Source of the DNA: a virus
Lineage: Duplodnaviria; Caudoviricetes
Length of the DNA: 30,073 nt
Virus record (IMG/VR): IMGVR_UViG_3300011338_000008
Coordinates: 1-30,073 of that record
Strand: one strand, 5' to 3'
Part shown: piece after piece, positions 3,748 to 30,073 of the stretch
Layout of the letters: each line of letters opens with the position of its first letter
Numbering within the stretch: position 1 is the stretch's first letter
Notes under the pieces: model-generated
What the model was told of the DNA's origin: nothing
Database searches by the model: none
Seen by the model: only the letters and a program-made list of their open reading frames with translations
Translations under genes and position numbers: made by a program

Positions 3748-5737
3748 AAGTCTGGTCAAGGAGTTAATCCTCAAAAGCATGACTCCTGAACAGCAGGAGG
3801 CTATTCTTAACTCTGTTAAAACCTCAGTTGCTCAAGCAAGAGCAGTCCAAAAGCAAAAGATTGGCGAGAATGTCGATCTTGTTGTCCAAGCTCTAAAGAA
3901 GATTGAGTCTGACATCCGTAGTCGCTATGACGATTTAGGCAATCTCATTGAGAAACGAGTCGCTTCCATTCAAGATGGTCGTGATGGTATCAATGGTACG
4001 GATGGACGAGATGGCAGAGATGGAAAGCCTGGTAAAGATGGTGCTCCTGGCAGACAAGGCCCACAAGGCCCTGCGGGTAAAGATGGCATAAATGGTGTTG
4101 ATGGTGTATCTGTAACTAACGCTTATCTAGACTTTGATGGTGGTTTGGTCATTACATTGTCTAATGGCAATGAGATCAATGTTGGCGAGATTGTGCCAAT
4201 GGAGTTGGCAAGCCAGATCAAGGTTATCACAAATGGCGGTGGTACATCTCAGTATGTACTAGATACTTTAGCTTCTTTGCAGACTCAGATTAACACTCTG
4301 ATTCCTAGCCAAACTGGTAACTCAGGTAAGTACCTGACTACTGATGGAACAAGTACTTCTTGGGCATCTATTGCGGGTGGTGGGTTGAGCTACCAAGGCA
4401 CTTGGAATGCCACTACCAATACGCCTACTTTGGCTTCTAGTACTGGTACAAATGGGTACTATTACATTGTTGCTACTGCGGGTTCAACAAATCTAAACGG
4501 CATTACTGATTGGCAGATAGGCGATTGGTTGCTTTTTAATGGTTCTGTATGGCAGAAAATTGACCAGACCAACTTGGTATCTAGCGTTAATGGTCAGACA
4601 GGGGTTGTTTCACTTACTTATACGGATGTTAATGCCATTGGTAGCATTACATCAACAGACGGCTCTGTGACTGTTTCTACAGCCTCTGGTGTGGCTGATT
4701 TATCTGTTGCAGTAGCAGCGTCTACCACCAATGTTATTTGCCAAGTAAGAAACTCTACTGGTGCAACCTTAACAAAAGGTACTGTTGTTTATATCAATGG
4801 TGCTACAGGTCAAATACCAACAGTTACAAAAGCGTTGGCAAGTGGAGATTCAACATCTGCACAAACATTAGGCGTGATGAGTGCTGATCTTGCCAATAAC
4901 TCTAATGGTTATGTGACCATTATTGGCTTGGTTACTGGCATGGATACATCTGCTTATACAGATGGTGCTCAACTTTATCTAAGTCCAACAACAGCAGGCA
5001 CATTAACTACAACTAAGCCTTATGCACCAAATCATTTGGTTTATGTTGCTATTGTTGAACACGCACACCCAACACAAGGTAAGTTGTTTGTTAAGGTTCA
5101 GAACGGCTATGAGTTAGATGAACTACACAATGTGTCAGCTCAGTCACCTAGCAATGGTCAGACAATTGTTTACAACTCTACTACTTCACTTTGGGAAAAG
5201 AACACAGTTTCTCTGACTGCTGGTGTTAATGGTACTTTGCCTATCGCAAATGGTGGCACAGGAGCAACTACTGCGGGTGATGCTTTAACTGCTTTAGGTG
5301 CTTATCCTGCCGCTAATCCTAGTGGATATACATCTAATACTGGTACTGTAACTTCTGTAGCGGCTACTGTTCCATCCATCTTTAGTATCTCAGGAAGTCC
5401 AATCACTTCCTCTGGTACTTTGGCTATGACATATAGCGGTACTGCCTTGCCTGTGGCGAATGGTGGTACAGGAATAACAAGTACTCCTACTAATGGACAG
5501 TTGTTAATTGGCAACGGAACTGGTTATACAGCGTCAACTTTGACTGCTGGAAGTAACATAACTATTACCAATTCTTCTGGCGGTATTACAATTGCCTCAT
5601 CAGGTGGTGGTGGTACTCTTGTATTTCCTTTTTACAAGGCTGATGGCACATCGGACACTATTGCTTTGGTAAGTAGTTCATATCTGCCTTTCTTTAATAG
5701 TTCTGGTACTGCCAAGAACATATTGCTAACTACTTGA
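3737..5737 (+). CDS. Collagen-repeat fibre protein (coiled coil + Gly-X-Y + beta-rich fibre domains)
   Basis: GRDGINGTDGRDGRDGKPGKDGAPGRQGPQGPAGKDG collagen stretch; VSSVNGQTG and LP(I/V)ANGGTG fibre motifs; Thr/Ser/Gly-rich. Confidence 0.8.
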   Translation: MDAESLVKELILKSMTPEQQEAILNSVKTSVAQARAVQKQKIGENVDLVVQALKKIESDIRSRYDDLGNLIEKRVASIQDGRDGINGTDGRDGRDGKPGKDGAPGRQGPQGPAGKDGINGVDGVSVTNAYLDFDGGLVITLSNGNEINVGEIVPMELASQIKVITNGGGTSQYVLDTLASLQTQINTLIPSQTGNSGKYLTTDGTSTSWASIAGGGLSYQGTWNATTNTPTLASSTGTNGYYYIVATAGSTNLNGITDWQIGDWLLFNGSVWQKIDQTNLVSSVNGQTGVVSLTYTDVNAIGSITSTDGSVTVSTASGVADLSVAVAASTTNVICQVRNSTGATLTKGTVVYINGATGQIPTVTKALASGDSTSAQTLGVMSADLANNSNGYVTIIGLVTGMDTSAYTDGAQLYLSPTTAGTLTTTKPYAPNHLVYVAIVEHAHPTQGKLFVKVQNGYELDELHNVSAQSPSNGQTIVYNSTTSLWEKNTVSLTAGVNGTLPIANGGTGATTAGDALTALGAYPAANPSGYTSNTGTVTSVAATVPSIFSISGSPITSSGTLAMTYSGTALPVANGGTGITSTPTNGQLLIGNGTGYTASTLTAGSNITITNSSGGITIASSGGGGTLVFPFYKADGTSDTIALVSSSYLPFFNSSGTAKNILLTT

Positions 5738-29152: not shown

Positions 29153-29332
29153 ATGAACATCGAACAAATTGAACAAAAGTGCGCTGAAACATTGCTTGAT
29201 TACGCAATCACAATGGCTACAGCTTATGTAGACGAACCAGAGGACTTTAATGCCGCTATTGTGGCTCTCCTCTGTAGAACGCTCGAAAACCATTTAAACC
29301 GACCAATTAACATTCAGGAAATGTACCAATGA
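29153..29332 (+). CDS. 59-aa hypothetical protein (not in the ORF track)
   Basis: MNIEQIEQKCAETLLDYAITMATAYVDEPEDFNAAIVALLCRTLENHLNRPINIQEMYQ; ATGA-coupled to 29329. Confidence 0.65.
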   Translation: MNIEQIEQKCAETLLDYAITMATAYVDEPEDFNAAIVALLCRTLENHLNRPINIQEMYQ

Positions 29333-29703
29333 CACAAGCGCAAGTAATTAAAGCCTTACAGAATGGGCCACTAACCTCACATGAGGTAGCTAACCTAACT
29401 GGTATGCCACAAGCTACAGTCCTGTCCACAGCAAAGAAACTACGCTACCAGGGTAAGTTGAACACAGAGATTGTCAAGGTTGGTAGGTCTTGGGTTGCCA
29501 AGTACACACTTCACGATGACCTGATTGAGCATAAAAAGAAGGATGACGATGAAACTCGTTGTAAGCTAAACCCGTTTGATATCAGGAATGCCAAGGGTAT
29601 TTTTACCCCTGCTGAGTACAAAATCATGGCTGCTCAAGCAAAAAGGTTGTTTAAAGGCAACCCTTACTTTACTGCTGGCATAACAAACAATCAAAAAATC
29701 TAA
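29329..29703 (+). CDS. Winged-HTH DNA-binding protein
   Basis: VIKALQNGPLTSHEVANLTGMPQATVLSTAKKLRYQGKL. Confidence 0.8.
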   Translation: MTQAQVIKALQNGPLTSHEVANLTGMPQATVLSTAKKLRYQGKLNTEIVKVGRSWVAKYTLHDDLIEHKKKDDDETRCKLNPFDIRNAKGIFTPAEYKIMAAQAKRLFKGNPYFTAGITNNQKI

Positions 29704-29709
29704 AAAAAC

Positions 29710-29739
29710 TTGTTGACACAGCAAAAAATTGTGTACAAT
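29710..29739 (+). promoter_or_regulatory. Sigma70-like promoter
   Basis: TTGACA (29713-18) and TACAAT (29734-39); spacing is only 15 bp (alternative -35 TTGTTG at 18 bp); the predicted start coincides with the first RNA hairpin. Confidence 0.55.
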
Positions 29740-29742
29740 GAA

Positions 29743-29865
29743 ATTGTTGCTGTGAAGGGTAACAATGTTAAGGCCGTTTGCACATGCTCTCTGTCTTTCG
29801 TAAGCACCAGTAGTGGTGTGTTTACGAAAGACCTTCACCAGAGGGCAGTTGCAAGCGGCTTTTTT
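29743..29865 (+). ncRNA. Structured RNA leader with loop-bulge pseudoknot and terminal U tract
   Basis: Stems 29743-50/29759-66, 29770-82/29850-62, 29785-93/29839-47 and 29794-807/29818-31; all non-Watson-Crick pairs are G-U on the + strand; loop GTGAAGG is complementary to bulge CCTTCAC. Confidence 0.75.
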
Positions 29866-30073
29866 ATTTCCTCCATGGCTTCCGTACTCCACACGATAGC
29901 AGCGCATTTGCATGGATGGCTTGGAAGAAAACACCGACATCAGGACACACCCCCTGTTTGCCGACCAGCGTTGGTTAAGCGACTGGTAAAGCATTTGGTA
30001 CATCGGTGGTAACAAGGCCAAATGTATAAGCGAATTAACTCGTCATGCGCACTTGGGGCGTTTTGTATTTAAG

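Follow-up and report, generated by a model that had tools for sequence, protein, structure and literature searches.

A kissing leader RNA before a structured noncoding cassette in freshwater phages: a candidate attenuator of a possible RNA-primed replication origin

We describe a leader RNA of tailed phages that is a real, uncatalogued RNA family, in which the loop of a 5′ hairpin is complementary to a bulge on a terminator-like rod, and which precedes a structured noncoding cassette. The reading that we favor, with a probability of roughly one half, is that the leader acts as an attenuator dosing the downstream structured RNA, and that this RNA would prime replication via an R-loop, by analogy with ColE1 RNA II. 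The components of this reading differ in strength: that the leader kiss is a real RNA interaction is hardly in doubt, that the leader is an attenuator is likely, that the cassette is an origin is slightly favored, and that the kiss promotes read-through is an even bet. Should the reading be true, it would account for how replication starts in abundant uncultured phages whose genomes show no recognizable initiator, helicase or polymerase, an orphan Rfam motif would gain a function, and attenuator and origin parts that are orthogonal by nature would become available by the dozen. Were the origin reading to fail, the leader would still stand as an RNA family new to the catalogues, with covariation of unusual clarity.

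The leader RNA and its kissing interaction

The window, that is, the whole stretch of 30,073 nt analyzed here, is a 30-kb piece of a tailed phage that is 86% complete and carries terminase, portal, capsid, lysis, Erf and SSB genes. It derives from a freshwater phage whose close relatives are uncultured. The leader lies at the end of the window, directly 3′ of an HTH gene. The features of the region are as follows.

29329..29703, + strand: HTH gene, with weak HTH matches below the Pfam cut-offs; it marks the replication-module slot and lies outside the RNA
29713..29739, + strand: predicted sigma70-type promoter, from the sequence and the fixed −10 position in the family
29743..29766, + strand: 5′ hairpin P1, with a conserved core (29746-50/29759-63), from the family alignment and folding
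29752..29758, + strand: kissing loop GTGAAGG, the 7-nt code, starting G-U-N-R
29770..29862, + strand: terminator rod, made of a 13-bp base helix, a 2x2 internal loop (29783-84/29848-49), a 9-bp helix and a variable apical hairpin
29832..29838, + strand: bulge CCTTCAC, the reverse complement of the loop, some two helical turns up from the base of the rod
29860..29865, + strand: T tract of a predicted intrinsic terminator, from the sequence
29882..30073, + strand: structured noncoding cassette of family F1, the proposed primer/origin RNA, continuing past the window
30005..30016, + strand: loop segments GGTGG and CAAG, which co-vary with the cassette 3′ end, their partner lying outside the window

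The predicted promoter has a −35 box TTGACA (29713-18) and a −10 box TACAAT (29734-39) separated by a 15-nt spacer. A consensus promoter scan of the window missed the boxes at 29713-39, and the prediction is supported by the fixed position of a TAnnnT box across the leader family: of 77 leaders, 64 have the box 4-5 nt 5′ of their start and eight have none within 10 nt. A terminator-like hairpin is also present on the + strand within the 3′ end of the HTH gene (window positions 29645-29662). A coding reading of the region was rejected, the overlapping ORFs at 29710-30012 (+ strand) and 29566-30021 (− strand) being without a PHROG match.

A preliminary description of the window, made from its letters, had proposed a structured RNA with a promoter-proximal, terminator-like end, and this was supported: the leader region folds with z = −8.0, none of 200 shuffles folding equally well, the −10 box is fixed, and the T tract recurs in relatives. 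The exact reverse complementarity of the loop at 29752-58 and the bulge at 29832-38 was likewise confirmed. The hairpin, rod, bulge and T tract stood as described, except that the apical helix, given as 14 bp, is really one of about 16 bp with a 2-nt bulge. The leader measures about 120 bases in the window. Its rod is 14 kcal/mol more stable on the + than on the − strand, and the + strand fold is preferred in 64 of 65 family members. The energy model alone shifts the bulge by one base; it is the family covariation that places it at CCTTCAC.

Relatives were collected by scanning IMG/VR with a pattern built from the rod base and the internal loop (including T4) and excluding loop and bulge, so that the conservation of the base helix and internal loop was partly fixed beforehand. 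About 400 stretches matched, 120 of which were fetched. A loop/bulge complement of at least 7 nt is found in 110 of the 113 unique matches, compared with 8.3% of cross-pairs, and an alignment of 65 leaders shows the kiss to be 98.7% paired without any G-U, whereas the stems are G-U-rich; the covariation that had been set as a test of the kiss is thus seen. Five of the seven kiss pairs change on both sides in these 65 leaders, and RNAalifold independently recovers the same nested fold. The loop starts with G-U-N-R in 108 of 113 leaders, leader length ranges from 93 to 125 nt in relatives, and at least six T within 8 nt are present in 112 of 119 leaders, T4 being part of the scan pattern. When the pattern was matched to cellular genomes, 22 of 29 matches were by eye without hairpin and kiss and were used as chance controls, and seven real leaders were found in cellular assemblies, four of them labelled betaproteobacterial. 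The leader of the window's type, termed type B, occurs in one copy per fetched genome. A divergent leader group (L093, L118, L143, L156, L162 and L174) has a kiss of 6-8 nt and unrelated cassettes.

The leader is absent from the Rfam models, none of which matched it in the window or in 38 related loci. Searches of GenBank phages returned two uncultured records only, and no published description of the leader RNA was found; unnamed candidates in the alignments of PMC10690425 (about 8,500, from DNA viruses) may include the leader or the cassettes. The supplement of Weinberg 2017 (PMC5737381) may likewise bear on novelty.

The noncoding cassette and its place in the initiator slot

According to the preliminary description, the leader gates the downstream operon. 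No protein operon adjoins it directly: of 69 loci examined, 65 have a gene with a ribosome site, and in 63 of these the first such gene starts at least 211 nt beyond the T tract. A structured noncoding cassette of about 250-300 nt, which the preliminary description had passed over, follows the leader instead. At least nine cassette families exist. Judged by near relatives, the F1 cassette of the window ends about 80 nt beyond the window end. A motif sort of 115 leaders gave 30 followed by F1, 21 by F2, 14 by M7, 13 by M3, 10 by F4, four each by Betaproteobacteria-1-like and M5 cassettes, two each by M4 and M6, and 15 unsorted. The cassette alignments contain frame-breaking indels and co-varying hairpins; these indels, and the lack of a common open frame in the alignments, led us to reject a protein-coding cassette. 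GNRA tetraloops number 34 on the + strand and four on the − strand, and in F1 and F2 the two loop segments match the cassette 3′ end at both variable positions in all 47 sequences that carry both motifs (79 pooled). Of four RNA-library assemblies, three lie mostly over the cassette and the fourth spans much of the region; being contigs that may hold DNA and that break at variant branches, they say nothing about ends or levels.

One cassette family corresponds to Rfam RF02932, the orphan motif Betaproteobacteria-1. This model scores above its gathering threshold for the cassettes of L079 and L088, both of which lie just 3′ of a type-B leader; the gathering threshold is not reached in the window. 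RF02932 is present in one of 151 genomes of one betaproteobacterial order. Betaproteobacteria-1-like RNAs were also observed in cellular replicons (L615:5980-6180 and L622:1380-1625), the L615 copy retaining the same-strand repeat described below; neither copy has a kissing leader by eye or an adjacent recognized phage gene. A search with four leader and cassette types against plasmids found no cassette on a small plasmid and one weak match, to a 1.5-Mb chromid record.

When scanned for from the cassette side, leaders of unrelated sequence share the promoter, the hairpin, the rod with a matching bulge and the T tract, and leader and cassette are therefore separable modules. An automatic detector found the kiss before 82 of 167 validated cassettes and in none of 334 shuffles; it is conservative, missing eight of 38 known type-B leaders and scoring type-C kisses at 4-5 nt. 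Most of the undetected cassettes show the leader layout by eye or a loop-loop kiss of 4-5 nt, and about ten are by eye without any leader. The type-C leader consists of a 5′ hairpin and a long branched rod with a T tract, joined by a loop-loop kiss of 4-5 nt, and is followed by F4 or M6 cassettes (L006, at 4445-4605, L007, L038, L039, L064 and L066). Several loci carry additional elements between leader and cassette: a structured insert of about 90 nt, directly after the T tract and without an Rfam match, in 10 of 129 loci (L078, L083, L086, L113 and L128 among them), tRNA-like genes in L113 (two) and L124 (one), and a short hairpin insert in L099 and L182.

The genomic setting is one of exchange between replication modules. 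Among 73 HTH-gene loci, 54 have a type-A leader, two a type-D leader, five a leader of the window's type and six a type-C leader, with six unclassed. The 54 type-A and two type-D leaders are followed by an initiator-type ORF, as read from ORF starts, and a PHROGs check placed five of five such ORFs in initiator or primosomal families. None of the nine type-B or type-C loci with enough flank has a full initiator; eight of them encode a short protein of 120-170 aa that matches the initiator profile at positions ~170-270 only and shares the tail of the initiators, its domain in G017 being the C-terminal half of the full initiator. Near relatives with the same code as the window (L126 and L119) run on into a truncated-initiator gene. 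For the truncated initiator, the PDB gave no sequence relative and the Atlas a weak lead only, Phg_2220_C. Similarly, where 1.2 kb of flank was available on both sides (85 cassette loci), a stand-alone C-terminal piece is present at 24 loci and an initiator N-terminus at none. In a sample selected by capsid protein (12 records of at least 30 kb, one with two modules), five modules have their own DNA polymerase, five a type-A leader and full initiator, and three a kissing leader, cassette and truncated initiator; no module mixes types. One of these three, G038, was found by covariance model, with a cassette outside the known families and a short protein recognized by motif only; G042 was compared with the window's DNA only. 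A 68-kb record, G039, carries both a type-A/full-initiator and a type-B/truncated module and is probably two joined genomes.

The type-A leader, found at 54 loci among L001-L072 some 10-130 nt after the HTH gene (e.g. L002:4390-4510), is a multi-stem RNA without an Rfam match, in which an inner loop appears to co-vary with a complement just before the ribosome site of the initiator; it has the look of a pseudoknot switch acting on translation of the full initiator. The type-D leader is a kissing rod (L042:4360-4470 and L050:4360-4470) that precedes a nuclease-type gene, T5orf172 or HNH-AP2, with the full initiator next in line.

Sixteen near-complete type-B carriers were available, eight of which have the truncated initiator only, five no match, and three (G004, G015 and G017) a full initiator elsewhere. 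G004, from the divergent leader group, retains the full initiator together with DnaB. The early-region ORFs scanned in G002, G007 and G018 (14 of 30, 13 of 32 and 18 of 55 ORFs of at least 110 aa, respectively) include no initiator, helicase, primase or polymerase. G003 encodes a primase-helicase and G005 a helicase and a primase, and at L591 the cassette is directly followed by a type-A leader. PolA was found in none of 19 carriers. The leader and cassette move as a block, and occur, for example, behind a terminase gene and between scaffold and capsid genes.

Signatures resembling those of an origin are found in the cassettes themselves. In F4 and Betaproteobacteria-1-type cassettes, an invariant internal motif is followed by about eight bases that are found again, on the same strand, directly after an invariant 3′ motif 60-86 nt further 3′. 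Of 73 unique sequences, 69 have copies that match over at least 6 nt, as do 73 of 74 in a second collection, which overlaps the first and was scanned with another pattern, compared with about 9% of cross-pairs. The complement of the repeat is missing from leader and cassette in 71 of 74 sequences. Purines make up 81% of the repeat and T 7%, and identical 8-mers turn up repeatedly. Its mismatches are of G upstream and A downstream in 116 cases (96 of them at one position) and the reverse in nine, a bias that pairing of the upstream RNA to the template strand, with tolerance of G-T, would be expected to produce. Such a repeat is the signature that would be expected, on sequence grounds and by analogy, of a ColE1-like RNA-to-template anchor. 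In the F1 family, to which the window's cassette belongs, a search for a co-varying repeat on the same strand was negative, and M3 cassettes give a hint of one; the origin reading at this locus thus rests on the slot exchange, the 3′ pseudoknot and a ColE1-like end motif.

Perfect DnaA boxes are present in 12 of 120 cassette windows and in none of 55 upstream windows, at 0.22 per kb in the cassette windows versus 0.014 genome-wide (16 times); the other 108 cassette windows have none, and some of the boxes adjoin downstream promoters. In G003, six perfect DnaA boxes are clustered within 140 nt at a site some 11.5 kb downstream from the leader; they may mark a DnaA-dependent origin of the phage. 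GC skew, examined in 15 genomes, showed no consistent switch around the element and was uninformative. A search for an antisense promoter gave best scores no higher than those of shuffles, whereas the sense region scored clearly higher.

Taken together, the slot exchange, the loss of the initiator N-terminus and the lack of PolA argue for an RNA-primed origin, as do the same-strand repeat, the DnaA boxes and the + strand GNRA loops, and the recurrence of the kiss-rod-T layout before cassettes in unrelated leaders argues for the attenuated-primer reading as a whole. The full initiators in three of 16 carriers, the arrangement at L591 and the replication genes of G003 and G005 argue against the origin, as do the missing F1 repeat, the cassettes lacking DnaA boxes and the absence of a cassette on small plasmids, and the cellular Betaproteobacteria-1-like copies and leaderless cassettes weigh against the overall explanation. 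The protein-free structured RNA downstream of the leader probably takes over from the usual initiator protein in starting replication of the phage.

Proposed mechanism and rival explanations

In the mechanism that we propose, RNA polymerase would start at the P1 hairpin, and the bulge would emerge from the polymerase ahead of the 3′ strands that complete the two lower helices. Should the loop catch the emerging bulge, a closed ring would form in which the 3′ strand could not wind two turns down the rod; no terminator would then form, and transcription would read through into the cassette. If instead the rod zips first, or if a bulge of the same code occupies the loop in trans, an RNA of about 120 nt would be released, which could then kiss itself. 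Once folded, the read-through RNA would capture either its own 3′ region or the DNA strand that has been displaced; in F4 and Betaproteobacteria-1 the internal purine-rich 8-mer would be anchored on the template strand. Either the host enzymes RNase H and Pol I or a primosome involving the DnaA box and the truncated initiator might act on the resulting R-loop, and priming of this kind would make the origin-binding half of the initiator dispensable. The direction of the switch is a proposal only, given that the two-turn geometry fits a kiss on the finished terminator equally well. More tentatively, and with somewhat less confidence than in the attenuated primer itself, one could imagine that a large group of freshwater phages has swapped the DNA-binding half of its initiator for interchangeable origin RNAs, each with an 8-nt template anchor, a loop for the displaced strand, a topological attenuator and a 7-letter kissing code that defines exclusion groups, i.e. 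a protein-free, doubly coded replicon.

Another possibility, which we consider unlikely, is that the leader attenuates a noncoding cassette RNA that acts in trans, in host takeover, anti-defense or otherwise, and that the initiator half was lost for other reasons. The unit does have its own promoter and occupies many genomic positions, full initiators stand alongside it in three of 16 genomes, Rfam types Betaproteobacteria-1 as an sRNA gene, orphan copies exist in cellular replicons, and contigs matching the cassette, possibly from DNA, occur in three lake RNA libraries. A trans-acting RNA would, however, leave unexplained both the clean exchange with initiator and polymerase modules and the presence of DnaA boxes and of a same-strand, co-varying repeat that has no partner.

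The terminated RNA of 120 nt could also be an exclusion effector of the P4 CI kind, its bulge pairing with the loop of an incoming phage of the same code and stopping its replication; this is rather improbable as the whole explanation, and it can hold together with the origin reading. The kissing code is indeed highly variable, with 32 codes among 65 leaders, and the kiss changes faster than the stems: two kiss positions have undergone 22-25 changes on a tree built without them, compared with at most 13 for any stem position, and 22 of 27 leader pairs with near-identical stems (two differences at most, in a set thinned at 93% identity) differ in code. The GUNR start of the loop is like that of the U-turn recognition loops typical of antisense systems. 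Fast turnover of the code could equally reflect relaxed constraint, the two-turn geometry favors self-pairing, which would hide the bulge, and neither a tyrosine integrase, a CI-type repressor nor extra target sites were found.

The kiss may also have no part in switching and serve to stabilize the terminator once it has formed, or the RNA once it is released, in a knot-like fold that resists nucleases. The geometry is compatible with this: the linker measures 5-8 nt in 63 of 65 leaders, and the bulge lies 22-23 nt from the rod base in 58 of 65 and 20 nt in six, about two A-form turns, both of which fit a fully zipped rod, and the kiss is worth about −8 kcal/mol compared with −54 for the rod. 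We nevertheless regard this as quite improbable, since a promoter-proximal terminator that never opens would silence a conserved cassette, and rapid code change is unexpected for a purely structural contact. Less probable still is a non-autonomous, RNA-guided mobile element, in which the internal repeat would be a guide to a flanking target as in the bridge RNAs of IS110, whose internal guide is matched to the target: the varied genomic positions, the orphan copies and the covariation of an internal segment with the 3′ boundary sequence would suit it, but the repeat is purine-biased with recurring 8-mers, unlike free target sites, no recombinase gene stands beside the cassettes (from ORF starts), each fetched genome has one type-B leader, and the initiator half is replaced rather than added to.

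Comparison with known systems

Loop recognition that decides termination or expression, with the letters of the loop setting specificity, is familiar from the rep attenuators of pT181 and pIP501 and from the repZ pseudoknot of ColIb-P9, where a separate antisense RNA acts and a Rep protein is controlled. In the phage leader, by contrast, the loop finds its partner in a bulge of its own transcript, and what is controlled is an RNA. The C4 RNA of P1-P7 likewise resembles the leader, and kinship with C4 had been suggested for it. That suggestion found no support: Rfam gave no match at the gathering score in the window, none at E ≤ 10 in 29600-30073, and none in the 38 related loci. Nor are there target boxes of the C4/CI type, extra copies of the code or its complement downstream being near chance (1 of 99 for the code, with 2.0 expected; 6 of 99 for the complement, with 1.6 expected) and upstream numbering two and zero, respectively, of 99. 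The CI RNA of P4 is alike in being a short, promoter-proximal leader RNA with complementary boxes and in acting through termination before replication functions, as summarized in PMC4825925. In P4 CI and C4 a processed RNA acts in trans to cause termination. P4 CI and C4 have two flanking target boxes, whereas the phage leader has one and no Rfam match, and it also differs in having no adjoining protein operon and no tyrosine integrase. None of 27 records holds a CI-type (S24) repressor, as had been noted for the window, nor a tyrosine integrase, and the absence of the integrase makes the immunity RNA of a lysogen, which had also been considered, doubtful.

RF02932, Betaproteobacteria-1 (Weinberg 2017, PMC5737381), matches the 5′ half of one cassette family; its model stops before the repeat-bearing 3′ part, it has no assigned function, and the leader and F1 cassette of the window are unmatched by it. 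ARRPOF and PAGEV, from the main text of the same study (PMC5737381), are also structured motifs, of 223-349 nt, that are linked to replication, and the ARRPOF RNA lies within a region sufficient for replication when rep is deleted. They differ in being plasmid-borne and without an Rfam match here, and no kissing attenuator is described for them in that text.

A close parallel is with ColE1. Long folded transcripts that prime replication are known from ColE1-type plasmids, and in ColE1 itself rG-dC pairing is essential for the hybrid, according to the review PMC4412123, in which phage R-loop origins such as that of T4 are said to use a promoter and an unwinding element. RNA II/RNA I and the phage unit share a promoter, a structured transcript of ~400-550 nt and kissing by a 5′ loop (PMC11012335 and PMC4412123). 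Further likenesses are that F4 and Betaproteobacteria-1 cassettes carry a purine-rich repeat on one strand, that a DnaA box stands close by in some cassettes, and that the phage unit, like ColE1, may dispense with a full initiator. In ColE1 (NC_001371), two same-strand G6 runs lie 247 nt apart with a DnaA box downstream. A short end motif is alike as well, GGAGCCTATGG in ColE1 and GGAACCTATG in F1/F2 cassettes; this 10-nt likeness is the extent of the sequence resemblance to RNA II/RNA I, there being no Rfam match and no match to a ColE1-type plasmid. The differences are that ColE1 is a plasmid and the present carriers are phages, whose unit has no promoter for an antisense RNA I, that control in ColE1 is by antisense refolding and here apparently by a cis kiss on an intrinsic terminator, and that the anchor is a fixed G6 in ColE1 and a variable code in the phage cassettes. 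The leader stands outside both the ColE1 and the P4 systems, although its mode of action is likely akin to the primer control of ColE1, with a touch of P4.
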